Below are positions 1 through 12,282 of a stretch of DNA of 40,924 bases, in pieces. The notes below the pieces were generated by a model, which ran no database searches, was not told where the DNA came from, and was given only the letters and a program-made list of their open reading frames with translations. The translations under genes and the position numbers were made by a program. How positions within the stretch are numbered: position 1 is the first letter of the stretch; each line of letters begins with the position of its first letter. Source of the stretch: a bacterium (GTDB taxonomy: Bacteria; Patescibacteriota; Dojkabacteria; JAKAPS01; JAJZLI01). The stretch covers positions 1 to 40,924 of the forward strand of contig JAJZLI010000032.1 in assembly GCA_021803645.1 (NCBI GenBank), read 5' to 3'.

Positions 1-19
1 TTCAGTTCCTCAAAATATA

Positions 20-1636
20 ATGAGTGTTGAATTCAAGATTATTGGGGATATGTCCATGAAGCAATTTGCTTTTATTGCTGTCCCTGCTTGTATTGGTTTT
101 ATAATGTTTATTGCCCATGTTAGTAATTATATTACAATTCCTCTGACGGGAATATTCTTACTTTTGGGAGTATTGGTTGCTTTTATACCCATTGATGATA
201 GACCTCTTGATCAATGGATTACCAATTTTTTAATTACCATTAAGAAGCCGACTCAAAGGATATGGATGAGAGAAGCTTCTGGTATACCTGCTGTACTTGA
301 TATTCCAAAATCTCCTACAATTTCTTCTTCTAATAAGGAAATTGCAACCTTTTTGTATCAAAATCCTTTTGATACAGCTATAAAAAATAATGTATCAAAT
401 GTTGATGGTGCATTAGAGTTAAAAGAAAGCATCCTTAATGCTAATATTGATAAAATTAATAAATTACTTACAACTGAGAAAATTGATACTAATGCAACAA
501 TATCTACTTCTCCTGTATCCTCGGTGTTAAGCAATAACCCCGTTTCTTACACGCCTTCAGTTCCACAACAGAATCCTCCAGAGAATAATAATGCAGGAAA
601 CTCAGTTGATAAAAATAATAGAGCAGAAGTAGAGATTAATAATGCAGAAGTTTCGAATACTAAATTGACTGAACCTGTTCCTAGTGATGGTTCTAATAGT
701 TCCGAAAATGCTTTATCTGGTATAGGTAACTCTCCTTCTTCTGTTGCACAAAATACCATTCCTGATGATAAAAACAATAGAGCTGAAGTGGGTATTAATA
801 ATGCAGAAGCTTCGAATACTAAATTGACTGAACCTGTTCCTAGTAATGGTTCTAATAGTTCCGAAAATGCTTTATCTGGTATAGGTAACTCTTCTTCTTC
901 TGTTGTACAAAATACCAGTTCTTATAGTCCCAATATACCTCCACCTTCTACTTTTACACAACAGAGTGGTCAACAAAATATAACAGATAGTAAAGTTGGG
1001 GATATTAACACTGAAATCAATAAAAATAATTTGGATAGTGTTAATAGTAATTCTGTAGTTACTCCAACTAATTCAGATTTTCATAGTAATAATTTGGTTA
1101 ATGGACAAAATGTTAATGCCTCTCAATCTCCTTTAGATAACAGTACCTCATCAAGGGATATTGAACTTTCAAAAATAATGGAGAGAATTAAACAACTTGA
1201 GATGGAAAATTCTAAATTAATGAATGAAGTTAATTCCAGAGTAGCACCAAATTATACTTTACAGAGTAATATTGAACAAGTAAAATCGAGGATGTCTTCC
1301 CAGTCAGGTACGTTTGATCAGCAGGAATTAATATCTAAACTTCCAGATTTTGTAAAAACCCCTAATGTAATTTCGGGAGTTATTGTAAATTCTGATGGAA
1401 CTTTGATTTCTGATGCTGTTGTGATAATAAAGGATTCAAATCAAAAACCTATAAGAGCTGTAAAATCTAATCAATTAGGACAGTTTTACACAAGGACGGC
1501 TCTTTTGAATGGGAGGTATAATATAGAAATTAATGCTCAGGGGTACAAATTTAATTCTGTAGGTATAGAGTTAACTGGATCTGTCGTAATGCCTTTTATA
1601 TTTATTCCTGTTATGCAGGAAAATAGTAACTTATAA
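20..1636 (+). CDS. PrgI/VirB3-like T4SS membrane protein with a long extension (S/N-rich tandem repeat, coiled coil, C-terminal carboxypeptidase-regulatory-like beta-sandwich)
   Basis: The N-terminus (MSVEFKIIGDMSMKQFAFIAV, then two hydrophobic helices, then PIDDRPLDQWITNF) matches the PrgI-family pattern. The same pattern recurs in the small ORF at 7506-7817. The middle is low-complexity N/S/P-rich with a 53-aa tandem duplication. A coiled-coil-like stretch follows (IMERIKQLEMENSKLMNEV). The C-terminus (VISGVIVNSDGTLISDAVVIIKDSNQKPIRAVKSNQLGQFY..GRYNIEINAQGYKF) looks like a CarboxypepD_reg fold. Confidence 0.6.
   Translation: MSVEFKIIGDMSMKQFAFIAVPACIGFIMFIAHVSNYITIPLTGIFLLLGVLVAFIPIDDRPLDQWITNFLITIKKPTQRIWMREASGIPAVLDIPKSPTISSSNKEIATFLYQNPFDTAIKNNVSNVDGALELKESILNANIDKINKLLTTEKIDTNATISTSPVSSVLSNNPVSYTPSVPQQNPPENNNAGNSVDKNNRAEVEINNAEVSNTKLTEPVPSDGSNSSENALSGIGNSPSSVAQNTIPDDKNNRAEVGINNAEASNTKLTEPVPSNGSNSSENALSGIGNSSSSVVQNTSSYSPNIPPPSTFTQQSGQQNITDSKVGDINTEINKNNLDSVNSNSVVTPTNSDFHSNNLVNGQNVNASQSPLDNSTSSRDIELSKIMERIKQLEMENSKLMNEVNSRVAPNYTLQSNIEQVKSRMSSQSGTFDQQELISKLPDFVKTPNVISGVIVNSDGTLISDAVVIIKDSNQKPIRAVKSNQLGQFYTRTALLNGRYNIEINAQGYKFNSVGIELTGSVVMPFIFIPVMQENSNL
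608..916 (+). repeat. In-frame tandem duplication, period 159 nt (53 aa), two copies
   Basis: Copy 1 starts at 608 (gataaaaataatagagcagaagta...) and copy 2 at 767 (gataaaaacaatagagctgaagtg...). About 150 nt of each copy is near-identical. Both encode DKNNRAEV.INNAE.SNTKLTEPVPS.GSNSSENALSGIGNS.SSV.QNT. Confidence 0.9.
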
Positions 1637-1647
1637 TATAATATTTT

Positions 1648-2334
1648 ATGGATAGCAAAAAAACACCAATTATTGCAACTACTCAAGCTCATTTAGATAT
1701 AGAGGAAATAAAAGATGATTTGCTTGTTTTAAAAAATGGAAATGTTTGTCTTGTTATTGAGACATCTGCAGTTAATTTCTATCTTTTGTCTGAGATTGAG
1801 CAAGAATCTAAAATTTATGCATTTGCTGGACTTTTAAATTCTCTGGGTTTTTATATTCAAGTTTTAGTACATACTGAGAATATTGATATTTCTAAATACT
1901 TGAAGTATTTGGATGATTTTAGGGAGAAACAAAAAGATCCCAAAGTAAAATATCAAATAGATATATATAGAAAATTTGTTAAGGATTTAATTGTAAAGAA
2001 TAACGTTCTTGACAAACATTTTTATATAGTTGTTCCTTCTTTTTCGTGGTCTACACAAAAACCATCTTTTACAAAGCAAATGTTTGGCAAAGAGGTTAAA
2101 TTAAATAATATTGATAGAATTATTGAACAGTCTAAATCAAGATTATTTCCTCGTAGGGATCATGTTATAAGACAACTGTCAAGGATGGGGTTAAAGTCAA
2201 AACAGCTTACTACAGCTGATTTAATTAAATTATTTTATAATATATATAATCCTATGAATGATAAGCTAAGGGGGGATTTTAATCAGTATACTGCTCCTTT
2301 AGTATCTTCTACTATGCAAATGAAACCTATATGA
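1648..2334 (+). CDS. Hypothetical T4SS-associated protein (paralog of 7801-8325; resembles a VirB4/TrbE N-terminal region)
   Basis: The ORF is 228 aa, and its stop overlaps the VirB4-like start (ATGA). The segment LDIEEIKDDLLVLKNGNVCLVIETSAVNFYLLSEIEQ aligns by eye with IIDIREGIIILKNSFYARLVEVFPTDVSFLEDTLKE of ORF 7801-8325. Both genes sit between a PrgI-like gene and a VirB4-like gene. Confidence 0.5.
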   Translation: MDSKKTPIIATTQAHLDIEEIKDDLLVLKNGNVCLVIETSAVNFYLLSEIEQESKIYAFAGLLNSLGFYIQVLVHTENIDISKYLKYLDDFREKQKDPKVKYQIDIYRKFVKDLIVKNNVLDKHFYIVVPSFSWSTQKPSFTKQMFGKEVKLNNIDRIIEQSKSRLFPRRDHVIRQLSRMGLKSKQLTTADLIKLFYNIYNPMNDKLRGDFNQYTAPLVSSTMQMKPI

Positions 2335-4334
2335 AATTACCATCTTTTTTTAAAAAACCTGCTGCAAGTGTTAACTCAAATGATGTTAATCCTGAAAATA
2401 CTAATACTACAGGATCACAACAGGGAACACCCAATACACCCAATTCTGCAATTGAGTTATTTGGAATGGGAATAAATTCCATAAAAGATATTATTGCCCC
2501 CCCTTCTATAGAAGTTGATTTTTCTAATATTAAGATTGGAGATAAATTTTTCAGGACATATTTTGCTCTTGCATATCCTAGATATGTAACTCCAAATTGG
2601 TTATCTCCATTAATTACATTTGAGCATTCTATAGACATTAGTATGTTTTATTATCCTATTGAAGCCAAGGAAGTCTTAGGACAGCTTAGAAAAAAGATTG
2701 CTGAGCTTGAGGCTACAACTAATACTATGATGGAGTCTGGTAAGGTGTTAGACCCTACGGTTAAGGTCGCATTGGAAGATGCCAAAGATTTACAGGATAA
2801 TCTTGCTAAAGGAGCTGAGCGATACTTTCATTTTGCTCTATATGTAACTGTAAGGGCTGATACCCTAGAAGATTTGGATGACATATCAAGGAATCTAGAA
2901 TCAACTTTGGGGGCAATGTCTCTCATAATTAAGCCGACAACTTTACAGATGGAAGGTGGTTTTCAGTCAACCCTCCCTGAAGGGTACGATAAGCTTTACT
3001 ATACCCATAATATGGATACTACTTCAATAGCGACAACATTTCCTTTTGTCTCCTCAGAACTTACTTCTGATAGAGGGGTGCTTTATGGTATTAATAAGGC
3101 TAATAAAAGTTTGGTTGTCTTTGATAGGTTTGACCTTGAGAATGCAAATTCCGTTGTTTTTGCAAAATCTGGTTCAGGTAAAAGTTATCTTGTAAAGCTA
3201 GAAGCTTTGAGGTCTTTGATGCTTGGTACCCAGATTATAATTATAGACCCTGAGAATGAGTATGAAACTTTGTGCAAGGCTCTTAATGGGCTTTACATTT
3301 CATTTACTCAGGATGGCAGAGATAAAATAAATCCCTTTGACTTGTCTGGAGTTTATGAAGAAGGTGAGGATGAACTTAGATTTAAAATATTATCTTTGCA
3401 CGGTCTCTTTAAAGTGATGCTTGGCAATGATGGTGGTCTTTCTAGTATAGAAGATGCTATTTTAGATAAAGCATTGATATTAACTTATAGGGACAAAGGA
3501 ATTACTTTTGACCCTGATACTCAGGTAAAAGACCCTCCACTTATGGAAGACCTTTATAAAGTTTTACAATCTATGGAAGAACCTGAAGCTCATGAATTAG
3601 CTACAAGGCTTGAAAAGTATATTAAAGGTTCTGCCTCTGGTATATTTGATACCCATACAACTGTAAACCTTGATAATGATTTTATTGTTTTTAGTATTAG
3701 GGATCTTTCTGATGAACTCCGGCCAATTGCTATGTTTTTAATGCTTGATCTTATATGGACTAGGGTAAAAAAAGATCTTAGAAAGAGAATTTTTATCATT
3801 GATGAAGCATGGATTCTAATGCAATATCCAGATAGTGCTCAATTTGTATATGCAGTTGCCAAAAGAGCTAGAAAGTACTACTTAGGTCTTACAACTGTAT
3901 CTCAAGATGTAGATGACTTTCTTTCAAATGATTATGGTAAAGCTGTTGTCACTAACTCTTCTATACAAATTCTTTTAAGGCAATCTCCTTCGGCAATAGA
4001 CCGTTTATCGGAAGTATTTTTCTTATCAGAGGGAGAAAAGAGTTTACTACTTTCTGCTGAGATTGGGGAAGGAATATTCTTTGTTGGTGCAAATCATGTT
4101 GCTATACAAGTATTGTCTAGTGAATATGAGCATAAACTAATCACTACAAACCCTGAAGAGATTTTAAAAATGAGAGAAAACCCTGAAGAGTCATCTTTAG
4201 ATCGTATTGTTCCTAATACTGTCGCAAATGAAACTCCTGTTGGTGGATTAAATAGTAATAGCGACATTCAGTTTAATACAGAGGATAATAATGATGTACA
4301 GGTGCAACCCAACTCTCAGAATATCGTCTCTTAG
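2331..4334 (+). CDS. VirB4/TrbE-family T4SS ATPase (copy 1, 667 aa)
   Basis: Walker A is FAKSGSGKS and Walker B is RIFIIDEAW. ARKYYLGLTTVSQD and SSIQILLRQ motifs are typical of VirB4/DUF87 ATPases. The N-terminal region has the IAPPSIEVDF..IKIGDKFFRTYFALAYPRYV pattern. The C-terminal ~60 aa are a low-complexity N/E/S-rich tail. Confidence 0.85.
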   Translation: MKLPSFFKKPAASVNSNDVNPENTNTTGSQQGTPNTPNSAIELFGMGINSIKDIIAPPSIEVDFSNIKIGDKFFRTYFALAYPRYVTPNWLSPLITFEHSIDISMFYYPIEAKEVLGQLRKKIAELEATTNTMMESGKVLDPTVKVALEDAKDLQDNLAKGAERYFHFALYVTVRADTLEDLDDISRNLESTLGAMSLIIKPTTLQMEGGFQSTLPEGYDKLYYTHNMDTTSIATTFPFVSSELTSDRGVLYGINKANKSLVVFDRFDLENANSVVFAKSGSGKSYLVKLEALRSLMLGTQIIIIDPENEYETLCKALNGLYISFTQDGRDKINPFDLSGVYEEGEDELRFKILSLHGLFKVMLGNDGGLSSIEDAILDKALILTYRDKGITFDPDTQVKDPPLMEDLYKVLQSMEEPEAHELATRLEKYIKGSASGIFDTHTTVNLDNDFIVFSIRDLSDELRPIAMFLMLDLIWTRVKKDLRKRIFIIDEAWILMQYPDSAQFVYAVAKRARKYYLGLTTVSQDVDDFLSNDYGKAVVTNSSIQILLRQSPSAIDRLSEVFFLSEGEKSLLLSAEIGEGIFFVGANHVAIQVLSSEYEHKLITTNPEEILKMRENPEESSLDRIVPNTVANETPVGGLNSNSDIQFNTEDNNDVQVQPNSQNIVS

Positions 4335-4998
4335 AATATCGTTACCATTTTTTACAAACATTGACTATTTCCGAAACAACCCATATAATGGGTATATTGT
4401 GAAATGGACAGATGGTTTAAATAAATTAGAATTCTTTGATCTGAAGGTGTTAAGACAATTTAACCCTTTGCCTAGTCAATCATTATATAAATTTGTCAAA
4501 AGGAGGGTTAAGGATCGTAACTTGATAAAGCTTAAAAAAGGCGTGTATACAACAAGTTATTTTGTTCAACATAACGATATCTTATCATATAGAGAAAGAG
4601 TTGCTAATTTCCTAAAAAAACCATCTTATTTAAGTTTGGAATATATGCTATCTAAATATTCTATTTTATCTGAAAATGTTTATGTTTTTACTTCAGTATC
4701 AACAAAAAAAACAAATAGGTATGTAAATGACCTTGGTACTTATTACTATCGTCATATTAAGGAGGAAATGTTTACTGGATATGTATTTGTAAATGGTGTG
4801 TACTTTGCTACAAAAGCAAAATCCCTTTTTGATTATTTTTATTTTAAAAAATATGTTTTAGAAATAGATTCTTTTAGATTAAATTTAGAAGAATTTTCTG
4901 ACCTTGATATGAAGGAATTTCTTAAATATTCTAAGGGAGATATTCGGATGATGGGTATATATAATTTACTTTTACAAAGGAAGAAAAATGTTTATTGA
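4291..4998 (+). CDS. AbiEi-like antitoxin / transcriptional regulator (type IV TA); start uncertain
   Basis: KRRVKDRNLIKLKKGVYT, PSYLSLEYMLSKYSILSE and ATKAKSLFDYFYF match the AbiEi family pattern (wHTH, then a rl.rGvY motif, then psYiSlesAL). The ORF overlaps the downstream AbiEii gene by 11 nt. The ATG at 4291 lies 44 nt inside the VirB4 gene. An in-frame GTG at 4399 is an alternative start. Confidence 0.6.
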   Translation: MMYRCNPTLRISSLRISLPFFTNIDYFRNNPYNGYIVKWTDGLNKLEFFDLKVLRQFNPLPSQSLYKFVKRRVKDRNLIKLKKGVYTTSYFVQHNDILSYRERVANFLKKPSYLSLEYMLSKYSILSENVYVFTSVSTKKTNRYVNDLGTYYYRHIKEEMFTGYVFVNGVYFATKAKSLFDYFYFKKYVLEIDSFRLNLEEFSDLDMKEFLKYSKGDIRMMGIYNLLLQRKKNVY

Positions 4999-6256
4999 GA
5001 AGCTGAGAAATATTATTCAAGAAAAAAAAACAATCTCGAGGGAGTTTATACGAAATGTCTTGAAGGTTGAATTAATATGGTATGTTTTGGAATTTATTTA
5101 TACATCAGAAAAATATAAAGATTTGATTTTTAAAGGAGGAACTTGTTTGAGTTTATGCTATGACCTTCCTAGGTTATCAGAAGATATTGATTTGGATTCT
5201 ACTAGAGAGATTGATCCTAATTTATTAAGGGAAGATTTAATTTTATTGTTTAAAAATCAACTTGCATATGACAATTTAAATGTCTCTATTACAAACCATA
5301 ACAATACTATCACATTAAAATTTCCTATTTTACATGAATTAGGGATAACTAGTGAAAATGAGAGTGATTTACTATATGTAAAGATAGATTTACAAAAGGT
5401 AGGATATTCTAACCCTCGTACTGAATTTATTGCCATTAGAAATTATGTTATTAATACATATCCTCTTTCAATTTTATTTTCTGGCAAAATTAATGCTATC
5501 TTTATGAGAAATAGACTTCGAGGTCATAAGAACTTGCTCTCTCCAAAGGGTAGGGATTATTTTGACCTTTTATGGTTTTTACAGAAAGGAATTAAGCCTG
5601 AACTTGATTTTATAGATAAAAATTTAAGTATCCTCTCTTTCCTAGATTTAAAATATCGTTTGGATATGAATGTAGATAAAGTTTGGGAGCATTATAAAAA
5701 TGACATAATTACAGATTTATCTCCTTTTATAGAAAAGCGGGAAATACTAGATCAATTTATTTCTTCTTTTCTGAGCCTTTATTATAAGTATTCCATAGGA
5801 ATATTTGATTATACATCAACAAATATTATTGGAAAGCAAAATTATTTAATAGACGAAATCAAAACTCTAATACAAAAATATAATTGTAAGATAGATAAAT
5901 TATACTTAGATGAAATGAATAATTATGAAAAAGGTGGAGGCTCATTTTATATTTCGAAAATATATGAGAATATATTCCAAGTTAAATTTTTAGAAGATAA
6001 GGCCAATATAAGAAACACTCCTACATCATCGATGAGTTATGTGTTATTTTATACTATTAATTTTCCGGCTAAGGGGATAATTGATCTAAAATTGAAAGTA
6101 TTACTAGATCCTCGTGTTAGTGTAGACCTAAGTACAATACAAAATAATATTGACTATCTAAGGGGTGAAATAAGTGAATATCAGGTATATATGGGGGAGC
6201 ATATTCCTGTATCAATTAAGGATACTTATTATATTCATTGTAAAATTCCCTTATAA
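4988..6256 (+). CDS. AbiEii/AbiGii-family nucleotidyltransferase toxin with an extra C-terminal region (422 aa)
   Basis: The motif FKGGTCLSLCYDLPRLSEDIDLD is the hallmark AbiEii (DUF1814) nucleotidyltransferase signature. KGRDYFDLLWF is the typical downstream motif. The gene is paired with an upstream AbiEi-like gene. Roughly the last 130 aa lie beyond what I recognise as the core. Confidence 0.8.
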   Translation: MFIEKLRNIIQEKKTISREFIRNVLKVELIWYVLEFIYTSEKYKDLIFKGGTCLSLCYDLPRLSEDIDLDSTREIDPNLLREDLILLFKNQLAYDNLNVSITNHNNTITLKFPILHELGITSENESDLLYVKIDLQKVGYSNPRTEFIAIRNYVINTYPLSILFSGKINAIFMRNRLRGHKNLLSPKGRDYFDLLWFLQKGIKPELDFIDKNLSILSFLDLKYRLDMNVDKVWEHYKNDIITDLSPFIEKREILDQFISSFLSLYYKYSIGIFDYTSTNIIGKQNYLIDEIKTLIQKYNCKIDKLYLDEMNNYEKGGGSFYISKIYENIFQVKFLEDKANIRNTPTSSMSYVLFYTINFPAKGIIDLKLKVLLDPRVSVDLSTIQNNIDYLRGEISEYQVYMGEHIPVSIKDTYYIHCKIPL

Positions 6257-6258
6257 AT

Positions 6259-6555
6259 TTGCCATGGATGGCAATGCATTACTGTAGATACTTGTTTAAT
6301 ATTGTACCCAATATGGAACAAGTACCAAATTTATCACAATTCGTTGGAAATATTACTTCTGTAATTATAACTATTGTTCAATCTGTCTTAGTTCTTATTG
6401 TTATATTTCTTGGAATACAATTTATTATGTATTCCAATAACCCACAGGAAAGATCTAGACTTGGAACTAAAATTATATGGGTATTAGTTGGGCTTTTTAT
6501 TATATTTGGTGCTCAAAATTTTAGTCATTTTCTACATGCGCTTATTCCTAGTTAG
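6259..6555 (+). CDS. VirB2/TrbC-like T4SS pilin-type small membrane protein
   Basis: It has two hydrophobic helices separated by a short polar loop (IVQSVLVLIVIFLGIQFIMYSNNPQERSRLGTKIIWVLVGLFIIFGA). This is the layout of T4SS pilin-family proteins. It sits just upstream of a VirB6-like gene. The ORF track start is a TTG at 6259. ATGs at 6268, 6274 and 6313 are alternatives. Confidence 0.55.
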   Translation: MPWMAMHYCRYLFNIVPNMEQVPNLSQFVGNITSVIITIVQSVLVLIVIFLGIQFIMYSNNPQERSRLGTKIIWVLVGLFIIFGAQNFSHFLHALIPS

Positions 6556-7519
6556 TATTATTACAATCTTTACAATACTATTCTTCATATCTGCCCCTGT
6601 TTATGCAAAGGGAAGCAATGGTACTCGTTTTAGTACAAGTTGTAGTAAAAACAATATATTTTATTCAATTCAAAATGTTTTATGTTCTTTTGGCTTTACT
6701 ATAAATCAATTTGTGGAATTCACTCCTAATATACTAAATAGTAGCTCAGATCCAAATACAAAATTTGGTGGTATTGCATATAGGGAATATAAAGATGGTA
6801 CAGAGTACATAGCTATATCATTGATACCCATACTTCTTTTTATAGGTATCATGATATACATCGGTGAGGCATCAGTTGGTCGTGGTGGGGTCTCTATGTA
6901 TGACTTACTGGTTAATACTATTTTTGCAATTTTTTTTATTTTACTCTCCCCATATATTCTATCCTATCTAATAACATTTATTAATGTTCTAGATAAATTT
7001 ATAATAGAGAATTTAATAGGATCATCTTCAGGAAATTTATTTACTCTTATCTTAGGTCATTTTACTCAATTTTCAATATTCGGTTTATTTGAAAATATTA
7101 TAAAGGTTATTTTATATATTGCATTAATTTTAGCATTATTTATTTTTTCTTTAGAATTTATTATTAGGTTTATATTACTCTGGATTTTAATATTGTTATT
7201 TCCAATATTTATAGTCTTTTCTTTATTTCCTATTTTTCAGGGAATGTTTAGGTCTATAACGTTAAAAATTATAGAACTTTTATTCATTCAACCTGCATTT
7301 CTTATAGGAATTTCTATATTTGTTGCTATTGTAAATAGTACTTCTATAACGGGAATACCTCAGTTTATTTTAGGTATATTAACTTTATATGCCCTATCTT
7401 TGATACCTTTTATTTTTAGTGGAAGTCTACATACCCCAGTACAAATCTTATCTGATCGTTTGAGATTGAACATATATAATACGACACAAAAGTTTTTAGA
7501 ACATAATGAAAAAGGTTAA
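6536..7519 (+). CDS. VirB6/TrbL-like polytopic T4SS membrane protein
   Basis: The start is placed at ATG 6536, giving a signal-like N-terminus (MRLFLVSIITIFTILFFISAPVYA|KG). At least 6 predicted TM helices follow a ~90-aa extracytoplasmic segment. The assignment rests on position between the pilin-like gene and the second VirB3/VirB4 module, not on a recognised motif. Confidence 0.5.
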   Translation: MRLFLVSIITIFTILFFISAPVYAKGSNGTRFSTSCSKNNIFYSIQNVLCSFGFTINQFVEFTPNILNSSSDPNTKFGGIAYREYKDGTEYIAISLIPILLFIGIMIYIGEASVGRGGVSMYDLLVNTIFAIFFILLSPYILSYLITFINVLDKFIIENLIGSSSGNLFTLILGHFTQFSIFGLFENIIKVILYIALILALFIFSLEFIIRFILLWILILLFPIFIVFSLFPIFQGMFRSITLKIIELLFIQPAFLIGISIFVAIVNSTSITGIPQFILGILTLYALSLIPFIFSGSLHTPVQILSDRLRLNIYNTTQKFLEHNEKG

Positions 7520-7817
7520 GGTATTAAAGTTTAAAAGTTTGAAGAACAACTATATCATACTATCATATGATTTTTATTGGATTACTTTATCCATAGTTAT
7601 TAACATTCTTTTGATTCTATTTATACATATAAATCTCAAATTAAAAGTTTTTTTTATTTCATTCATTCTTGCCTCTATGTATTTCTTGTTTAAGCAAAAT
7701 TTCAAAGGTAGGTTAATTATTATTTGGTTTTTTGATTTAATTAAATTCTTTTTTAGAGATAAGAAATTTTCATTTATGTTTCATTATTTTAGTATCCCTT
7801 ATGAAGAGCACAAGTAG
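7506..7817 (+). CDS. Small PrgI/VirB3-like membrane protein (copy 2)
   Basis: The ORF is 103 aa with two TM helices, followed by GRLIIIWFFDLIKFFFRDKKF. This parallels RPLDQWITNFLITIKKPTQ in ORF 20-1636. It overlaps both neighbouring genes. Confidence 0.45.
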   Translation: MKKVKVLKFKSLKNNYIILSYDFYWITLSIVINILLILFIHINLKLKVFFISFILASMYFLFKQNFKGRLIIIWFFDLIKFFFRDKKFSFMFHYFSIPYEEHK

Positions 7818-8325
7818 TTTTTTCCCTATTATTGATATTAGGGAAGGAATAATAATATTAAAAAATTCTTTTTATGCAAGGTTGGTAGAGGTATTTCCTA
7901 CAGATGTATCGTTTTTGGAAGATACATTAAAAGAAAATTTTATAAAAAAGTATGAAGCGTTCCTATTAGGTCTTAATTTGCAAATAAAATTGTCTGTTTG
8001 TAATTTAATAGTTTCCAAAGCTAATGCGCTACAGTATATTGGAAATATAGAAAACGAAAAACTTAAATTGCTATATGAAAATGAAATAAATACTACCCCA
8101 TTATTTTCAGAAATTTATGAGCAACGATATTTTGTAAGCTATATATTTGAGAGCAAAAGAAAGTCTTTAGTTTTTTCTCATGAATTTTCAGGAATTAAGA
8201 AATTAGTTACAAGTTATGATACGCAGTTAGAGTACCTTCTTATTCACATTGGGTTTGACCATAAGTTTATTTATAACAATCATGAGATAGAAGAGGTTTT
8301 TTCTTCTATTTACCTAAATGCATGA
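7801..8325 (+). CDS. Hypothetical T4SS-associated protein (paralog of 1648-2334)
   Basis: The ORF is 174 aa and shares the ATGA overlap with the downstream VirB4-like gene. Its N-terminal segment aligns by eye with ORF 1648-2334. Confidence 0.45.
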   Translation: MKSTSSFFPIIDIREGIIILKNSFYARLVEVFPTDVSFLEDTLKENFIKKYEAFLLGLNLQIKLSVCNLIVSKANALQYIGNIENEKLKLLYENEINTTPLFSEIYEQRYFVSYIFESKRKSLVFSHEFSGIKKLVTSYDTQLEYLLIHIGFDHKFIYNNHEIEEVFSSIYLNA

Positions 8326-9944
8326 TCAATATTAAAAAAAATATTACTAAAATGCTCCCATTAACTGTTTTAGAGACATATAAGTTTGTAAAAATAAACG
8401 ATGTATATTATATAACCTTTACTTTTTATGATTTTCCATCAGAGATAATTCCTTTTTGCCTTTTGGATTTTGTATTTTCAGGGGGTAATGTGCTGTGTTC
8501 CCAAATTATTAACCCTCTTGATAAATCTTCTGTCTTAAATGCTATTAAACATAGGGTAGCTGCATTAAGTGCTAAGCGTCATTCTGATTTTACAAAAGGA
8601 AAATTGAGGGATTCATCTTTAGATATGGAAATTGCAAAATTAGAAGACTTCACATACTCATTAATTTCTGGCAATTCAAAGGGTTTTTTAATGGTAACAT
8701 ACATCACATTATTTGGTAAAAATTTAAATAAGTTGAGGGTATTATCTAAAAATATGCAAATGCTTGCAGAGTCAAAGGGATTTATTTTATACCAATTAGA
8801 TTTGAATCACGTAGCTGGTTTTCTTTATTCTTTTCCTATTACCACATATTCTAAATTTCCTGGCATGGTATATGAATCTAAATCCTTGTCTGCTTTAAAT
8901 TTCTTATCTGTTGGGAATCAATGTGACTATGAAGGAATATTATATGGAGAAAATGTCTTATCTAAATCCTTATGCATTTTGGATATTTTTAAGCTTGAAA
9001 ATTATAATAGTGTAATTTTTGCAAAATCTGGAGCTGGGAAGAGTTTTCTTGCAAAGACGACTATTGTTAGAATGATTTCAAAAGGGATTAAGGTAATTGT
9101 TATTGATCCTGAAGGAGAATATGTGAAACTTTGTAAGTCTTTGAATGGGAAGTTGGTAAAATTTGCAAATAAAAATAAGGGTTTGAATAATTACACTATT
9201 AATCCACTAGATTTATCACAAGATGAAAGTATTGAAGATAAGATATCTTTTATAGAAGGTTTTTTGAAGAAGTATAGTTCCAGATTTGATAAAAATGTTT
9301 TAGATAAAGCATTATTGAAACTTTTCAGAGAAGTAAGTTCTCCGACTTTCCTTGATTTATACAATATTTTGAAAGAGTTTAAGAATATTATGGCTGATGA
9401 GATTTTTCCTATTGCTAAAGGTTCCCTATCACATTTATATTCTAAGAGGACTAATGTAAATATAAATAAAGAAGATAATCTAATTGTTTTTGATATTTCT
9501 GATTTGGTGGATGATAATATCCCATTAATGATGTATGTAATTTTAAATTATCTTTGGAAGTTAAAGGATCCTTCTGTGAAAAGGCAGATATTTATTGATG
9601 AGGCTCATAGGCTATTTGATAATTTCGAACTTTTAAACAATTTAAAATCCCTTACAAAAAGGGCAAGAAAGTACAATATGGGTTTTTGTTATATTACACA
9701 GGATATTGGTGATGTTATTGATACTGATAAGGGTAGATCTATTCTTGCTAATACTTCTTTGAAGATTTTATTAAAACAGGATAAGGTTAATTTTGATAAA
9801 CTATCTCAGGCATTGTCACTTTCATCTGAAGAACTGGGAATTTTGACTAATTTACCAATAGGTTCTTCTTTGATGCTTTATAACGATACACATGTTCGTA
9901 TCAGGCATTTTGCCTTTGAATTTGAAAGAAATTTTTTTATTTAA
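8322..9944 (+). CDS. VirB4/TrbE-family T4SS ATPase (copy 2, 540 aa)
   Basis: Walker A is FAKSGAGKS and Walker B is RQIFIDEAH. ARKYNMGFCYITQD and TSLKILLKQ parallel the copy 1 motifs. It is shorter at both ends than copy 1. Confidence 0.8.
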   Translation: MINIKKNITKMLPLTVLETYKFVKINDVYYITFTFYDFPSEIIPFCLLDFVFSGGNVLCSQIINPLDKSSVLNAIKHRVAALSAKRHSDFTKGKLRDSSLDMEIAKLEDFTYSLISGNSKGFLMVTYITLFGKNLNKLRVLSKNMQMLAESKGFILYQLDLNHVAGFLYSFPITTYSKFPGMVYESKSLSALNFLSVGNQCDYEGILYGENVLSKSLCILDIFKLENYNSVIFAKSGAGKSFLAKTTIVRMISKGIKVIVIDPEGEYVKLCKSLNGKLVKFANKNKGLNNYTINPLDLSQDESIEDKISFIEGFLKKYSSRFDKNVLDKALLKLFREVSSPTFLDLYNILKEFKNIMADEIFPIAKGSLSHLYSKRTNVNINKEDNLIVFDISDLVDDNIPLMMYVILNYLWKLKDPSVKRQIFIDEAHRLFDNFELLNNLKSLTKRARKYNMGFCYITQDIGDVIDTDKGRSILANTSLKILLKQDKVNFDKLSQALSLSSEELGILTNLPIGSSLMLYNDTHVRIRHFAFEFERNFFI

Positions 9945-10690
9945 GATTCTGAAATTTGTACAGCTTTTACTATATACCTTTGTGTTCCTATTCCTGGAGG
10001 TATACATGTCATAAGAGTTAAATATTTTTTACCTGGAGGGGATTGAAGTACTGATATATCAGTTGGAGAAACAACACTTTCTTGTATTATTGAATATTTA
10101 TAGACTATACCTTTATATTTTATATATACTAATTGTCCATTTTGTAATTTTAATATATTGGTAAATATGCCTAGGAAAGAGCTTGGATAAAGGTCTGCAA
10201 ACCATTGTGGGGCGCTGTGACCATATATATATACGTTACCTACTTCTCCAGGTAGGGCAGTTCCTTTCATTTGGGCTAGTGAACTGGTTAGTACTGTCTC
10301 ATAAGCCTTTGTATTGAATCCATCTACATTAGCTTTAACAGGGATGTTGGATAGTGATATTGCAGGAATTGATATTTGGAAAGTTCCATTATATGACTCG
10401 TTACTTTGAGAGTGTTGTGCATCGATAATCTTTTCAAAATATGCAGCGGAAGGATCGGCTTTTACTATAACACTTTTATATTTATGAAAAACAACTTTAT
10501 TTATAACATATTTTATCTCTGGGGATAATGCAATTATTATTGTGATAATACCTACAACTAATAAGAATATTGATCCATAATTAGGATGAAATCGAAATTT
10601 TTTGTAATTCACCCGTGGTGTCTTTTTTACTTTAATGGGGTATTTTTTGTTTATACTAATACCTTTTTTAACATACATGTATCGTGCCAT
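9941..10690 (-). CDS. Sortase-family transpeptidase
   Basis: It has an N-terminal TM anchor (GSIFLLVVGIITIIIALS), a catalytic His context (NVYIYGHS), a TLxTC catalytic Cys motif (LTLMTCIPPG) and a downstream Arg (TQRYIV). I prefer the ATG at 10690 (MARYMYVKK). The track start at 10726 would overlap the divergent promoter and leave an 11-nt gap. Confidence 0.8.
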   Translation of the reverse strand: MARYMYVKKGISINKKYPIKVKKTPRVNYKKFRFHPNYGSIFLLVVGIITIIIALSPEIKYVINKVVFHKYKSVIVKADPSAAYFEKIIDAQHSQSNESYNGTFQISIPAISLSNIPVKANVDGFNTKAYETVLTSSLAQMKGTALPGEVGNVYIYGHSAPQWFADLYPSSFLGIFTNILKLQNGQLVYIKYKGIVYKYSIIQESVVSPTDISVLQSPPGKKYLTLMTCIPPGIGTQRYIVKAVQISES

Positions 10691-10714
10691 GATAATTATT
10701 ATAGCATTCACATG

Positions 10715-10723
10715 TGTTATAAT
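10715..10723 (+). promoter_or_regulatory. Extended -10 element TGTTATAAT upstream of 10738 gene
   Basis: A perfect TGnTATAAT match lies 15 nt upstream of the ATG at 10738. No clear -35 was examined. Confidence 0.35.
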
Positions 10724-10737
10724 CATTCAATCAGATT

Positions 10738-12282
10738 ATGATCCCTAATTTTTTTACAGGTAGGAAATATAAAATCTTATTAATAGTTATTTCTTTTATT
10801 CTTTCTGCATTTTTTATATATTTATATATAAAATATTCTTTCCATGTAAGTTTAAATTCTGATGTTGTTCAGGGTGCTCTTGAAGTGAGTTCCATACTTC
10901 ATGGCAATATTCTATTACATGGGTGGACACTATCTCCGGATAACTTTTTATTGTCGGATTTGCCGTTATATCTTTTTCTTGGAATATTTATAAAAAATCA
11001 AGTTTTATTATCTCATGTTGCTCCTATTATTATTTACCTTGGGCTTATTTGTGTTAGTCTTTTGATTTCACTACGTAATGTATCTCATAGAAAAATTGCT
11101 CTCCTGTCAACTTTTGCAGTAATTGGCATGCTTCCTCTCTTTACTTTTGTATCTTTCTTAGTAGGGTTTGTTCATATAGGATCTATTCTGGAGGGTTTAT
11201 GTTCTTTATACCTATTTATTAATTTCATAGATTATAAAAAAACAAAGTATTTGTTATGGTCTGGAGTTCTCTTATTAGCTGCACTATTTTCTGATCCATT
11301 TATAATTTGGATACTGCTTATTCCTTTAATTATTTTTCTCATTATTAAAATCAAAGAGAGTATAAAAAATAGGGGATTTTTAAGTATATATACATCTACC
11401 CTTATATTTATTTTATCTATATTTGTCTTATCTGAGATACTCAGATATGTCATCCCCAGGATAGCTGGATTTAGTATACAGAAATTAGCTTATCAGTTTG
11501 CAACTCTTCCAGAGATTATAGCTCATATTACTACTATTATAAATAATCTTTTGTATGTTTTTGGAGCAAATTTTTTAGGTCAGTTGCTTTTTTCTCATCA
11601 GGCATTTGAAGCTATTTTGCACTTTAGTGTTTTATGCCTAATTTTATTCTTTGCATATATGACATTAAAGGGTGGTAGTAAGAAAATGGATAGTATTAAT
11701 TACATACTTTCCATGGGTATATGTTTAGATATGGTTGCTTTTATTTTTAGTAATATTGCAGCTAATGATACTTCATCATCAAGATATCTTTTTCCTATAA
11801 TAATTTTTGGGGCAATTATTTTAGGGAGATCTATTGGTAATATTAAGCATATAAAGGGGTATGTCTATATTGTTGCATTAATAGTTTTTCTTATATTCTT
11901 TGCTGTTTTCTTCCATGATTCTTCTTTAAATCAACCAAATCTTTTAGGTTCGTCTAATGTTAAGGTAGCTAAATTTCTTGTGGCTCATAATTTAAAATAT
12001 GGATATGGTTATTATTGGAATTCTTCTATTGTTACCGTTGATTCAAATTCAAAGGTGAAGGTTCGGGCAATAGTTCCAAATGGTGATCATTTTGTACCTT
12101 ATTTTTGGATATCTTCTGGGGCATGGTATTTTCATCATTATGCAAATTTTATTGTTTATGATGAAGATAGCAGTATTTTTGGACAAATTGCTACACATGC
12201 TTTTGGTAAACCCATTAATGTATATCACCTTGGGGAGGATACAATTCTTGTTTGGAATAAGGATATAACACCATATATTTGA
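10738..12282 (+). CDS. Large polytopic membrane protein, possibly a GT-C-fold (ArnT/PMT-like) glycosyltransferase
   Basis: The ORF is 514 aa with about 11 or more hydrophobic helices. An acidic first loop (NSDVVQGALEVSSILHG) and a ~110-aa soluble C-terminal domain fit the GT-C architecture. The functional assignment is weak. Confidence 0.4.
   Translation: MIPNFFTGRKYKILLIVISFILSAFFIYLYIKYSFHVSLNSDVVQGALEVSSILHGNILLHGWTLSPDNFLLSDLPLYLFLGIFIKNQVLLSHVAPIIIYLGLICVSLLISLRNVSHRKIALLSTFAVIGMLPLFTFVSFLVGFVHIGSILEGLCSLYLFINFIDYKKTKYLLWSGVLLLAALFSDPFIIWILLIPLIIFLIIKIKESIKNRGFLSIYTSTLIFILSIFVLSEILRYVIPRIAGFSIQKLAYQFATLPEIIAHITTIINNLLYVFGANFLGQLLFSHQAFEAILHFSVLCLILFFAYMTLKGGSKKMDSINYILSMGICLDMVAFIFSNIAANDTSSSRYLFPIIIFGAIILGRSIGNIKHIKGYVYIVALIVFLIFFAVFFHDSSLNQPNLLGSSNVKVAKFLVAHNLKYGYGYYWNSSIVTVDSNSKVKVRAIVPNGDHFVPYFWISSGAWYFHHYANFIVYDEDSSIFGQIATHAFGKPINVYHLGEDTILVWNKDITPYI

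Follow-up and report, generated by a model that had tools for sequence, protein, structure and literature searches.

The locus described here raises the question of what a bacterial chromosome does with two VirB4 motors, each accompanied by its own small partner proteins, in a neighbourhood where genes for DNA transfer are missing. The window, by which we mean the whole 40,924-nt stretch of DNA that was analysed, had been described in an initial annotation as carrying duplicated, paralogous triads in one compact operon-like array, and all ten co-directional ORFs are present at the stated coordinates. The reading that we hold with considerable confidence is that the locus is a chromosomal, non-conjugative, MPF_FATA-derived T4SS of the kind typical of the ultrasmall Patescibacteria (CPR), which consists of two separable units, with cassette B as a machine parallel to unit A. 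Unit A, from the window start to 4334, is the energiser found throughout the phylum and is made up of a PrgI/VirB3-like protein, a TrsD-like protein and a canonical VirB4; unit B (6259–9944) is a separable, lineage-restricted cassette of a pilin, a VirB6-like protein, a small 2-TM protein, a TrsD-like protein and a second ATPase, VirB4-2. The lineage is low-GC, and its VirB4 groups next to Dojkabacteria. The features are as follows.

1–1636, + strand: unit A gene 1 (B3L1), PrgI/VirB3-like N-terminal 2-TM hairpin, long S/N/P-rich linker and C-terminal CarboxypepD_reg
607–917, + strand: tandem repeat in the B3L1 linker, unit of 159 nt (53 aa), 2 copies, 94% matches (TRF)
1648–2334, + strand: unit A gene 2 (X1), TrsD-family, homologous to the N-terminal region of unsplit VirB4
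2331–4334, + strand: unit A gene 3 (VirB4-1), 667 aa, canonical Patescibacteria-clade VirB4 ATPase
4291–4998, + strand: AbiEi antitoxin / transcriptional regulator (PADLOC AbiEi E 2.1e-35; NCBIfam TAA_AbiEi E 1.1e-8)
4988–6256, + strand: AbiEii nucleotidyltransferase toxin with a long C-terminal extension (Pfam AbiEii 77.9 bits; PADLOC E 4.5e-24)
6259–6555, + strand: cassette B gene 1, VirB2/TrbC-type pilin with two hydrophobic helices
6536–7519, + strand: cassette B gene 2 (B6L), polytopic, VirB6/TrbL-like, about 6–7 TM segments; ORF open from 6488
7506–7817, + strand: cassette B gene 3 (B3L2), small 2-TM protein at the VirB3 position, weakly TcpE/ConD-like
7801–8325, + strand: cassette B gene 4 (X2), divergent TrsD-family protein (hhalign to X1, HMM matches)
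8322–9944, + strand: cassette B gene 5 (VirB4-2), 540 aa, divergent VirB4-family ATPase, Walker A and B intact
9941–10726, − strand: sortase, convergent neighbour (Pfam Sortase E 2.6e-21)

A Chromosomal Locus without DNA-Transfer Genes

Taken by themselves, the VirB4, TrsD, PrgI, VirB6 and pilin components are all conjugation-type, and their best NCBIfam families are named “conjugal transfer”, as would be expected of a fragment of an ordinary ICE or conjugative plasmid with its DNA-processing genes beyond the window. That explanation is effectively refuted, and we give it next to no weight. No match to a relaxase, VirD4, VirB1, VirB8, VirB11 or integrase was found among the main (non-nested) ORFs of at least 90 aa across the whole window, and the same gene set gave no match in 7.5 kb of upstream sequence (on a 113-kb contig), which carries NTP_transferase, a solute-binding protein, a PilB-type ATPase, BacA and others. 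The downstream genes are the sortase, DnaJ, UDG, Lon-like, NusA, IF2, PNPase, S15 and RNase J. Another eight distinct genomes share this housekeeping synteny, which is identical in loci L004, L006, L008, L094, L095, L098 and L100. Because relaxase, coupling protein and integrase are all missing from the window and the 7.5 kb upstream, and because the synteny recurs so widely, the locus is not an ICE, and the initial annotation was right both about the lack of DNA-transfer genes and about a chromosomal setting with housekeeping flanks. Published surveys also speak against the conjugative reading: the VirB4-1 clade occurs in about 80% of CPR genomes with the relaxase almost always missing, and the same component set without a relaxase has been described across 2,417 CPR genomes (PMC12102498). 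A VirD4-like protein is reported in the literature for most CPR genomes, far from virB4.

Unit A, the Phylum-Wide Energiser

VirB4-1, which has low-complexity tails at both its N- and C-terminal ends, scores 386 bits against the NCBIfam VirB4 CD1110 family (cutoff 325) and matches Pfam P-loop_TraG and CagE_TrbE_VirB. It has more than 8000 homologues; the best of those listed, about 60–65% identical, are in Dojkabacteria/WS6 and Microgenomates. The canonical VirB4 clade is recovered in 100/100 NJ bootstraps, and VirB4-1 has a dN/dS of 0.063.

The small protein in each triad had been left as an unknown; it is TrsD-like by NCBIfam, hhalign and HMM matches. For X1 the evidence comprises NCBIfam TrsD/TraD (22.9 bits) and HMM matches to B. 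cereus TrsD (1.6e-19), to a 274-aa Pontibacillus protein (4.7e-53) and also to residues 52–225 of a full-length S. suis VirB4 (8.8e-7). On the 894-aa Mbov_0397 VirB4 model, X1 covers positions 103–282 and VirB4-1 covers 274–893, and the X1 family adjoins VirB4 in 78 of 87 loci. X1 amounts to an N-terminal domain of VirB4 that has become a protein of its own. The kinship of this TrsD family with the N-terminal part of VirB4 makes each triad an energiser built from VirB3 and a VirB4 in two pieces, in the manner of TrsC-D-E of pGO1.

The first gene, B3L1, has TM segments at residues 13–38 and 39–60; its PrgI match in Pfam (E 0.0012) is below the cutoff, its CarboxypepD_reg match (32.9 bits) is just above it (32.3), and an HMM of its N-terminal part matches annotated PrgI proteins from Paenibacillus (4.5e-6) and from S. 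suis (4.6e-4). It had been placed at 20–1636; its 5′ end is cut by the window edge. Window position 1 corresponds to position 7515 of the sister assembly L001, where B3L1 starts at 7492/7498, which puts the start 17–23 nt upstream of the window and makes the ATG at 20 internal; about 14 aa are therefore lost. The sister assembly carries approximately one repeat copy more in the B3L1 linker, being 156 nt longer between the anchors that bracket the gene (window positions 1 and 2001).

The Spacer and the Sortase

The description of what lies between the two triads was incomplete, as it did not mention the AbiEi/AbiEii defence pair (4291–6256). This pair is variable spacer and stands outside the T4SS proper: across relatives, the units lie between 27 and 4654 nt apart, and the sequence between them holds unrelated genes, often defence genes, with a different content in every relative. 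The toxin–antitoxin pair was inserted into this spacer. The sortase had been seen as fitting a cell-surface theme, but its adjacency is conserved lineage synteny. In locus L098, where cassette B is absent, VirB4-1 (83% identical) directly abuts the sortase, and because the adjacency persists there it gives no evidence of a functional linkage to the T4SS.

Cassette B

The pilin and the VirB6-like protein are more than genes that happen to lie between two modules, since both travel with the second triad as a five-gene cassette. The assignment of the pilin stood up well: it passes the Pfam cutoffs for T4SS_pilin (29.5 > 26.6) and TrbC (28.8 > 27.9), scores 32.9 bits against the NCBIfam Mbov_0395 pilin-like model, and probably has its true start at 6274 or 6313. 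The polytopic nature of B6L (6488/6536–7519) was likewise confirmed. Several lines point, weakly or transitively, to a VirB6-like identity: jackhmmer links it to large membrane proteins at the VirB6 position in Saccharibacteria and Daviesbacteria (79 matches, 63 loci), one such relative matches Pfam TrbL (E 0.0015), hhalign gives 99.7% and 98.8% to homologues with precomputed TrbL_3 matches, which hmmscan did not reproduce, and the top Foldseek matches of its AF2 model (pLDDT 55) are to R388 TrwI/VirB6 at a non-significant E > 0.2.

B3L2 may be VirB3-like on similarly weak or transitive grounds. It has a hydrophobic block at residues 17–57, matches Pfam TcpE weakly (E 0.084, with 0.01 and 0.0048 for two of three other orthologues scanned), and its family HMM matches the N-terminal TM region (37–116) of an 854-aa Spiroplasma VirB4 (E 3.7e-5). 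No similarity between B3L1 and B3L2 was detectable. X2 is tied to its counterpart in unit A: the X2 and X1 profiles align by hhalign at 97.4% (E 1.6e-11, 169 columns), jackhmmer from X2 converges on the X1 family, and HMM matches include X1 (1.4e-8), a Pontibacillus TrsD-like protein (2.4e-6) and B. cereus TrsD (4.9e-5).

The best families of VirB4-2 are the same as those of VirB4-1, namely CD1110 (204 bits, below cutoff), with which it is collinear over residues 20–525, and P-loop_TraG (67.8 bits); it also matches the PDB VirB4 structure 4AG5 (E 1.3e-24). An alternative assignment of the two ATPases to the HerA/FtsK type was rejected. As initially annotated, both are VirB4-family with Walker A and B present, and these motifs, along with many other residues, are invariant across the 13 VirB4-2 orthologues. 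Judged from its sequence, VirB4-2 is a divergent and presumably catalytically intact VirB4. It is also rare, with only 13 protein clusters (at least 47% identity) in 5.8 billion.

A Spare Copy, a Remnant or a Second Machine?

VirB4-2 shares 30% identity with VirB4-1 and about 31% with each of the canonical CPR VirB4s, and it falls outside the clade of the latter in 100/100 NJ bootstraps, a long-branch placement that is unreliable by NJ. At about 31% from VirB4-1 and from all CPR classes, and never nesting inside the canonical clade, it does not fit a recent duplicate, and to speak of “duplicated” or “paralogous triads in one compact operon” claims too much.

Such divergence could reflect decay of a non-functional duplicate of the T4SS core. 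Identity between genomes is indeed far lower for the cassette than for unit A (48–49% for VirB4-2 vs. 80–83% for VirB4-1; 31–39% for X2 vs. 70–73% for X1), and there is an analogy in RvhB4-II of Rickettsiales, which has lost its ATPase sites (PMC4676284). VirB4-2, in contrast, has kept Walker A and B. Moreover, all five cassette ORFs are intact in every locus seen, the pilin is 100% identical in amino acids to that of L100 at a dS of 0.41, and dN/dS for the cassette genes is 0.09–0.12 (B6L 0.099, X2 0.094, VirB4-2 0.098), similar to DnaJ, IF2 and NusA. Cassette B is under purifying selection, and decay, which the selection analysis contradicts, is very improbable.

A second possibility is that the cassette is the remnant of a T4SS from an ICE or plasmid, acquired horizontally from a non-CPR monoderm or archaeal source and loosely domesticated beside the resident system. 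The NJ placement would agree with this, as would the presence/absence polymorphism of the cassette in differing genomic contexts, its GC content (27.1%, below the 32.8% of unit A and the 32.6% of the remaining window sequence), its position next to the AbiE defence-gene hot spot, a higher score with the CedD model for VirB4-2 (56.8 bits) than for VirB4-1 (21.6 bits), and a published tree that puts 49 CPR VirB4s with non-CPR or archaeal clades (PMC12102498). However, VirB4-2 resembles the canonical CPR VirB4s more than it does that of Pontibacillus (28%), its best plasmid matches (25–27%) or the VirB4s of other Firmicutes, Actinobacteria and Spiroplasma (24%). The gene order (pilin array, VirB6-like, PrgI-like, TrsD-like, VirB4) is that of Saccharibacteria and Daviesbacteria, and the pilin is VirB2-like, both CPR-typical. 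Integrase, relaxase and T4CP are missing, dN/dS matches that of housekeeping genes, and L097, a more distant locus, has the double layout too, which hints that it is ancestral within the lineage. We consider acquisition of this kind unlikely.

Somewhat less unlikely, though still doubtful, is a single hybrid machine in which both ATPases share one pilin/VirB6 apparatus and split the work, e.g. into pilus biogenesis and substrate translocation; VirB4-2 would then take the place of a second ATPase of VirB11/VirD4 type, which is missing here. Unit A has no pilin or VirB6-like gene near it other than those of cassette B, neither VirB11 nor VirD4 occurs in the neighbourhood, and VirB4-2 has a weak partial match to Pfam T4SS-DNA_transf (24.2 bits) that VirB4-1 lacks. 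In L097 both units form one apparent operon with a 27-nt gap, equally compatible with one machine, and in Rickettsiales rvh a conserved and a divergent VirB4 paralogue are already known to coexist within one system (PMC4676284). Against this, the two ATPases come with separate VirB3-like and TrsD-like partners, a sign that they may dock separately, and VirB4-2 is collinear with VirB4 over its full length and is without the coupling-protein TM domain. The units also occur apart: L096 and L099 carry cassette B alone, with other flanks and no unit A nearby, L098 has unit A without the cassette, and Dojkabacteria loci as a rule have just a bare triad. The variable spacer likewise speaks for two separable units. 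Most likely, cassette B is a self-contained minimal machine parallel to the conserved unit A, and not a spare copy.

A Possible Role at the Host Interface

The non-conjugative, host-interaction role in an episymbiont that was proposed initially matches the accepted reading of this system in Patescibacteria and, having been published already (PMC12102498, PMC12857230), is not new. The function of the CPR T4SS has been described as unknown (PMC11665869). The system was essential for epibiotic growth of Southlakia by Tn-seq (summarised in PMC12857230), and cryo-EM has revealed tubular structures at the parasite–host interface that, according to the authors, may be T4SS pili (bioRxiv 10.64898/2026.06.21.733656). 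For two parallel machines, it can be envisioned, by homology with characterised T4SSs, that each TrsD/VirB4 hexamer is anchored to the membrane by the VirB3-like hairpin that belongs to it, and that the VirB4 of cassette B pulls pilin from the membrane and passes it onto the VirB6-like platform. A pilus or conduit might in this way come to span the monoderm envelope and extend in the direction of the host cell. Overall, the T4SS takes a rare, lineage-specific form here, with a very divergent five-gene cassette beside the phylum-wide core, and the conduit would serve macromolecule exchange with the host rather than conjugation.

Gene Content of the Locus

The type IV secretion (T4SS) locus consists of ten co-directional, tightly packed open reading frames at positions 20-9944, at the coordinates proposed in the initial annotation. 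The genes described there are likewise present, but a pair of AbiE genes between the two modules had been missed, and the first gene, initially read from position 20, has its true start 17–23 nt before window position 1. The first three genes are referred to here as unit A and the last five as cassette B.

Genes of the T4SS locus, all co-directional, with their Pfam/NCBIfam family matches
20-1636, 538 aa: B3L1, weak PrgI N-terminus and a C-terminal CarboxypepD_reg domain
1648-2334, 228 aa: X1, TrsD/TraD, aligned to positions 103-282 of the 894-aa Mbov_0397 VirB4 model
2331-4334, 667 aa: VirB4-1, VirB4 CD1110 family (386 bits, cutoff 325), aligned to positions 274-893 of the Mbov_0397 model
4291-4998 and 4988-6256, 235 and 422 aa: AbiEi and AbiEii, AbiE families
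6259-6555, 98 aa: pilin, T4SS_pilin and TrbC, each above cutoff
6488/6536-7519, 343/327 aa: B6L, no family match
7506-7817, 103 aa: B3L2, very weak TcpE match only
7801-8325, 174 aa: X2, no family match
8322-9944, 540 aa: VirB4-2, best matches to VirB4 families (CD1110, 204 bits, collinear over residues 20-525), with P-loop_TraG, DUF87 and AAA_10

The GC content of the window is low (about 26–39%), and a scan for promoters and terminators returned a number of sites not above that in shuffled sequence. By Pfam, the remaining window encodes housekeeping and surface proteins: a sortase, DnaJ, UDG, a Lon-like AAA protein, VIT1, NusA, IF2, a DHH protein, PNPase, S15, RNase J, peroxiredoxin, a 1934-aa Kelch-repeat protein and a P-type ATPase. 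At 25539-35292, the Kelch-repeat protein, a secreted beta-propeller protein, is followed by four proteins of about 310–350 aa, all of which carry a signal peptide; a C-terminal transmembrane (TM) anchor is present in three of them and a Big_6 Ig domain in one. The Kelch and adhesin-like proteins near the sortase show no LPXTG-type sorting signal. In the related genome L006, the Kelch giant directly follows DnaJ, near the T4SS locus. Between the sortase and DnaJ lies a 514-aa protein (10738-12282) with about nine or more TM segments and no Pfam or NCBIfam match; it is confined to the closest relatives (L001-3 and L100) and is fast-evolving (65% amino acid identity, dN/dS 0.21). Genes for tRNA-Ser(CGA) and tRNA-Arg(GCG) sit at the far end of the window (40069-40243, minus strand), with no integrase or repeat linked to them in the window.

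Two VirB4 ATPases, Each Split from a TrsD-like Protein

Both ATPases can be assigned to the VirB4/TrbE family from their full-length, collinear matches to VirB4 models. VirB4-1 also reaches the Pfam CagE_TrbE_VirB cutoff (21.6 bits, cutoff 21). The top match of VirB4-2 is CD1110, below the equivalog cutoff, with residues 20-525 aligned to model positions 201-732; it further matches P-loop_TraG at 67.8 bits (cutoff 25.8) and the solved VirB4 structure PDB 4AG5 (E 1.3e-24). The two proteins are 30% identical along their whole length. Intact Walker A and B motifs, as initially read, are found on inspection in each (KSGSGKS and IIDEAW in VirB4-1, KSGAGKS and FIDEAH in VirB4-2), and G237, G239, K240, S241, D426 and E427 of VirB4-2 are invariant across 13 orthologues, as are many other residues. 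The possibility had been raised that profile searches would place the ATPases outside VirB4, among HerA/FtsK-type proteins, and NCBIfam and Pfam profiles did not do so: VirB4-2 scores 16.5 bits against the HerA model (cutoff 970) and has no FtsK_SpoIIIE match, its DUF87 domain is common to VirB4, and its collinearity with VirB4 models led us to reject the readings of it as a coupling protein or as HerA-like.

The protein preceding each ATPase, initially labelled as unknown, proves by profile comparison to be a TrsD-family protein. The X1 profile matches Bacillus cereus TrsD (1.6e-19), a Pontibacillus 274-aa protein encoded upstream of VirB4 (4.7e-53) and residues 52-225 of the unsplit Streptococcus suis VirB4 (8.8e-7), and X1 and VirB4-1 together are collinear with a single full-length Mollicute VirB4 model. 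BLASTP detected no similarity between X1 and X2; jackhmmer from X2 converges on the X1 family, hhalign joins the two at 97.4% (E 1.6e-11, 169 columns), and the X2 HMM matches both X1 and TrsD (the latter at 4.9e-5). A predicted TrsD homologue thus adjoins virB4 in both units. A sequence search of the X1-family profile against solved structures found no match.

B3L1 scores 19.7 bits against Pfam PrgI, below the cutoff of 27, and an HMM of its N-terminal family matches annotated PrgI proteins at 4.5e-6; a PrgI/VirB3-like identity is likely for this N-terminal part. PrgI-like proteins with a long C-terminal extension ending in a CarboxypepD_reg domain recur among relatives. The S/N/P-rich linker of B3L1 contains a 159-nt (53-aa) tandem repeat at 607-917, present in two copies in the window and about three in the otherwise near-identical sister assembly L001; no other part of the locus evolves as fast as this linker (dN/dS over the entire gene, 0.27). 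B3L2 has a two-TM hairpin and weak TcpE matches (E 0.084 for the window protein, and also in two of the three other orthologues scanned), and its profile matches the N-terminal TM region of the fused VirB4 of Spiroplasma. Neither BLASTP nor profile comparison links B3L1 to B3L2. Taken with the TrsD-family assignment of X, the two-TM proteins suggest that each triad comprises a VirB3-like anchor and a VirB4 in two parts, one TrsD-like and the other the ATPase, which, judged by homology, is the TrsC-TrsD-TrsE arrangement of pGO1-type systems.

Two further components lie in cassette B. The pilin scores 29.5 bits against Pfam T4SS_pilin (cutoff 26.6) and 28.8 against TrbC (cutoff 27.9), and a predicted VirB2-like pilin is thus encoded near virB4. 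B6L is polytopic (about 6–7 TM segments). Searches with jackhmmer tie it to proteins in the VirB6 position of canonical loci of the Patescibacteria (CPR), one of which matches Pfam TrbL at E 0.0015, and hhalign connects it at 98.8% and 99.7% to homologues in L097 and L099, two relatives, that have precomputed TrbL_3 matches; our own Pfam hmmscan gave none. Its AF2 model has a pLDDT of 55, and the top Foldseek matches, to R388 TrwI/VirB6 chains, are non-significant (E 0.28–0.8). B6L is probably, though not provenly, VirB6-like.

A Variable Spacer between the Units

PADLOC recognizes both genes of the spacer (AbiEi, E 2.1e-35; AbiEii, E 4.5e-24), which overlap by 11 nt, and the adjacent pair is predicted to form an AbiE type IV toxin-antitoxin/abortive infection system. 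The AbiEii of the window carries a C-terminal extension of about 190 aa. Across relatives, the distance from VirB4-1 to the pilin ranges from 27 to 4654 nt, and its contents are unrelated among genomes. AbiEi/AbiEii pairs occur in three genomes and differ among them, lying in either orientation and having toxin lengths of 224, 348 and 422 aa; other spacers hold DUF5663 with a 996-aa protein, or Kelch, acetyltransferase, HD and DUF3850 genes, or DUF8173. This variable islet (window 4291-6256; L006 6468-7722, minus strand; L100 6192-7882, minus strand; L094 3283-7609; L004 4646-7944) looks like an insertion hot spot for defence and accessory genes inside a T4SS locus.

A Chromosomal Locus without DNA-Transfer Genes Nearby

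No relaxase, VirD4/T4CP or integrase was found in 48 kb, comprising the main non-nested window ORFs of at least 90 aa searched against Pfam and 7.5 kb upstream covered by precomputed Pfam matches, and no VirB1-like cell-wall hydrolase or VirB8-like protein matched Pfam or NCBIfam in 1-9944. The upstream sequence comes from L001, whose VirB4-1 is identical to that of the window and lies on a 113-kb contig; it encodes an NTP_transferase, a solute-binding protein, a PilB-type ATPase, BacA, AAA_14 and a pyridine-nucleotide oxidoreductase. A relaxase, VirD4 and integrase just upstream would have made this a standard integrative element, and these 7.5 kb hold none of the three. Housekeeping synteny is kept in eight further distinct genomes. 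A conjugative MPF_FATA element, whether ICE or plasmid, can thus be set aside, since no relaxase, T4CP, integrase or replication functions are linked within 48 kb and the synteny is maintained; the predicted setting of the virB4 genes is chromosomal, with no relaxase or T4CP nearby in these 48 kb. The profile scan bears out, for the whole window, the early impression that DNA-transfer genes are missing.

Saccharibacteria are known to require two surface machines, the type IV pilus and the T4SS. Here they are near neighbours, for a type IV pilus assembly ATPase (T2SSE/PilB-like) lies 2.5–4 kb upstream of the T4SS core (L001 3387-5051, minus strand; L098 1-173 and 3640-5307). The same upstream stretch of a relative also carries a T2SSF/PilC-like gene and a GGDEF protein.

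Distribution and Separability of the Two Units

The two units differ greatly in distribution. VirB4-1 has more than 8000 homologues; among the matches listed, the best are about 60–65% identical and carry the names WS6/Dojkabacteria, Curtissbacteria, Roizmanbacteria or “Patescibacteria group”; such names point to WS6/Dojkabacteria as the probable affiliation of the lineage. VirB4-2 has few close relatives: among 5.8 billion proteins, just 13 clusters (at 90% identity) are at least 47% identical to it, below which identity falls to about 30–32%, the level of canonical CPR VirB4s. Among 1.84 billion representatives at 50% identity, only two exceed about 33%, P0125 (50%) and P0248 (37%). The short B6L is equally narrow in distribution, with 12 clusters. 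A profile scan of species-representative genomes with the VirB4-2 alignment recovered at least one VirB4-2-type locus (in L008) and at least 79 canonical loci. The 79 canonical loci inspected are from Saccharibacteria, Daviesbacteria, Dojkabacteria, Gracilibacteria and Peregrinibacteria, and no second VirB4 lies within 10 kb in any of those listed. The Saccharibacteria and Daviesbacteria loci run from a pilin array (5–7 genes) through a large protein in the VirB6 position to PrgI-like, TrsD-like and VirB4 genes; the Dojkabacteria loci have the triad on its own.

Eight further distinct loci have the double layout, among them those of L004, L006, L008, L094, L095 and L100 and, more distantly, L097; it is absent from L098. 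In this last genome, VirB4-1 is 83% identical and synteny is the same on both sides, with VirB4-1 directly abutting the sortase and no cassette B at the syntenic locus. Conversely, L096 carries the pilin, VirB6-like, small TM, TrsD-like and VirB4-2 genes alone, flanked by unrelated genes, and in L099, the source of the 37%-identity intermediate P0248, the five cassette genes follow FtsK, GT2 and RodZ, with no unit A within 4.8 kb. These three layouts identify the natural units as a bare core triad (A) and a five-gene cassette (B). The locus is therefore not a pair of triads with one pilin and one VirB6 in common, and the initial interpretation is supported in part.

In L097 (GCA_025450075.1, 13653-15673), the second ATPase is only 522 aa long, is 30% identical to VirB4-2 over the N-terminal 220 residues, and has before it a single 151-aa protein without a match to either the X2 or the B3L2 profile, which suggests that its cassette has been further remodelled.

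Origin and Maintenance of Cassette B

Whether the two ATPases are recent paralogues or distinct clades had been posed as a question for a VirB4 phylogeny. A neighbour-joining (NJ) tree was built from 56 VirB4 sequences; plasmid records supplied six outgroups, from Firmicutes, Actinobacteria and Spiroplasma. Bootstrap support for monophyly is 100/100 for the VirB4-2 clade and likewise for the canonical CPR clade; VirB4-1 falls inside the canonical Patescibacteria clade, and VirB4-2, on a long branch, is nested in it in 0/100. With divergent representatives added, the VirB4-2 clade, to which P0248 is sister, still lies outside the canonical clade, among other long branches. Its mean identity is 31–32% to every CPR class, VirB4-1 of the same loci included, 28% to Pontibacillus and 24% to the other outgroups, and the best plasmid tblastn matches of VirB4-2 are 25–27% identical. 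On this placement and these identities, VirB4-2 is not a recent duplicate. The data are compatible with its being an old CPR paralogue or with its having been acquired long ago from a related MPF_FATA system, as far as an NJ tree with a long branch can indicate.

The GC content of cassette B (27.1%) and of the AbiE pair (26.7%) lies about 5.5 points below that of unit A and the rest of the window. The dN/dS ratios of the cassette genes can be compared with those of unit A and of housekeeping genes.

Nei-Gojobori dN/dS, window versus the related genome L100 (dS about 0.4–0.9)
Cassette B: VirB4-2 0.098; X2 0.094; B3L2 0.124; B6L 0.099; pilin 0 (100% amino acid identity)
Unit A: VirB4-1 0.063; X1 0.021
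Housekeeping: DnaJ 0.090; IF2 0.078; NusA 0.093

The T4SS genes of both units are under purifying selection, and the cassette ORFs are intact in every locus examined; by these measures selection maintains cassette B. Between more distant genomes its divergence outpaces that of the core (48–49% identity for VirB4-2 versus 80–83% for VirB4-1).

Relation to Known Systems

VirB4 has been reported in 2,417 of 3,035 Patescibacteria genomes as a monophyletic clade nested in MPF_FATA, on chromosomes, with adjacent TrsD, PrgI/VirB3, VirB6 and VirB2-like pilins and almost no relaxases, and the authors conclude that the system took on a new role, which may be import from hosts (Quinonero-Coronel et al. 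2025, PMC12102498). The initial reading of the locus as a non-conjugative, chromosomal apparatus linked to episymbiosis was therefore right but, given this and related literature, not new. The same study counts 2,425 clade VirB4s in 2,407 assemblies and 49 outside the clade, from which second copies must be rare, and does not discuss tandem double loci; we did not find a tandem arrangement with a second, divergent VirB4 cassette in the literature. The present locus shares VirB4, TrsD and a VirB2-like pilin with the published gene set, and probably PrgI/VirB3 and VirB6 as well, together with the chromosomal setting and the lack of a nearby relaxase or T4CP; VirB4-1 belongs to the canonical clade, and cassette B follows the gene order of Saccharibacteria and Microgenomatia. 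It differs in having a single pilin rather than an array of 5–7, a short VirB6-like protein (about 310–340 aa, versus 570–1070 aa), and a second VirB4 that falls outside the canonical clade and has separate TrsD-like and putative VirB3-like partners. Thus, the general kind of T4SS is already known, whereas the two-unit architecture with a lineage-restricted, separable five-gene cassette is new.

The succession of small TM protein, TrsD and VirB4 is shared with the TrsC-TrsD-TrsE units of pGO1/pSK41-type MPF_FATA systems and with B. cereus pH308197_73 and Pontibacillus. The pGO1-type units, unlike those here, are on conjugative plasmids with a relaxase, T4CP and cell-wall hydrolase, and pH308197_73 is typed as conjugative (MOBQ). 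The Firmicute comparators have an NlpC/P60 or lytic transglycosylase gene directly 3′ of virB4. Pilins are described as absent from MPF_FATA (PMC12102498), and the Firmicute conjugation loci that we retrieved have no annotated VirB2-like pilin, whereas cassette B has one. Of the non-CPR relatives found, the Pontibacillus proteins are by far the closest, their VirB4 being about 40% identical to VirB4-1; their 898-kb plasmid is typed as non-mobilizable, and no relaxase was seen there. On this plasmid (Pontibacillus sp. ALD_SL1, NZ_CP062975.1, 236-3258), a PrgI-like protein (116 aa), a TrsD-like protein (274 aa; 173 bits against the CPR X1 profile) and VirB4 (621 aa) are followed by a peptidoglycan endopeptidase, and in 50/100 NJ bootstraps the VirB4 joins the canonical CPR clade; this triad could bear on the origin of the CPR T4SS.

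Mollicute ICEs offer a further comparison, in that X1 and VirB4-1 together span the Mbov_0397 VirB4, the pilin matches the Mbov_0395 family, and the Spiroplasma fused VirB4 begins with the TM region that the B3L2 profile matches. In Mollicutes a single polypeptide, encoded on a mobile ICE, combines the VirB3-like, TrsD-like and ATPase parts; here three chromosomal genes encode them, and the set is present twice. The nearest conceptual parallel, by analogy, is the Rickettsiales rvh T4SS (PMC4676284), also of reduced-genome, host-dependent bacteria, in which a conserved VirB4 (RvhB4-I) coexists with a faster-diverging paralogue (RvhB4-II) strictly kept within the lineage. RvhB4-II lacks the ATPase active-site residues and lies far from other rvh genes, whereas VirB4-2 keeps invariant Walker A and B motifs and has its own adjacent partners; moreover, rvh is a diderm P-type system and the system here is monoderm and MPF_FATA-type.

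Possible Roles of the Two Units

By sequence, the locus encodes two intact VirB4 ATPases, each preceded by a TrsD-like and a two-TM protein, together with one VirB2-type pilin and one polytopic, probably VirB6-like protein. In the VirB and R388 systems, VirB4 docks at the membrane through the VirB3 hairpin and draws the VirB2 pilin out of it, and VirB6 is the platform for pilus or stalk assembly. By homology, cassette B would hold exactly this minimal VirB2/VirB3/VirB4/VirB6-type set, and its most likely product, by analogy, would be a pilus or conduit through the monoderm envelope towards the host, while unit A would be the conserved energizer of the phylum-wide system. Because the units are separately linked and have separate cognate partners, we favour their acting in parallel. 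VirB4-1 and VirB4-2 might alternatively work in one hybrid machine, given that no other pilin or VirB6 lies near unit A and that L097 has an apparent tight operon; the separate linkage of the units, each with its own partners, makes this less likely. A further reading can be offered only tentatively, as possible if somewhat doubtful: cassette B would be a self-contained, five-gene minimal T4SS or pilus machine, an old Patescibacteria T4SS paralogue with its cognate anchor set, whose gain, loss and relocation would not depend on the essential core and which would provide a second conduit with a different host specificity.

The published general picture of CPR T4SSs is unchanged by this locus. 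The role of these systems has been called unknown in a perspective article (PMC11665869), and tubular structures at a parasite-host interface may, according to their authors, be T4SS pili (bioRxiv 10.64898/2026.06.21.733656). In the one species tested, Southlakia epibionticum, the T4SS is essential for epibiotic growth by Tn-seq, as summarized in PMC12857230 (Wang et al. 2023). A core standing beside a divergent, fully equipped and selectively kept cassette is a natural dissection of which parts form cognate, co-evolving sets and which can be shared, and it parallels the unexplained VirB4-I/VirB4-II paralogy of the Rickettsiales, another reduced-genome, host-dependent group. Cassette B is a candidate minimal pilus-building gene set of five genes; if the tentative reading is true, few natural T4SS gene sets would be smaller, and it would provide a natural test of the parts sufficient for a VirB2 pilus in a monoderm.
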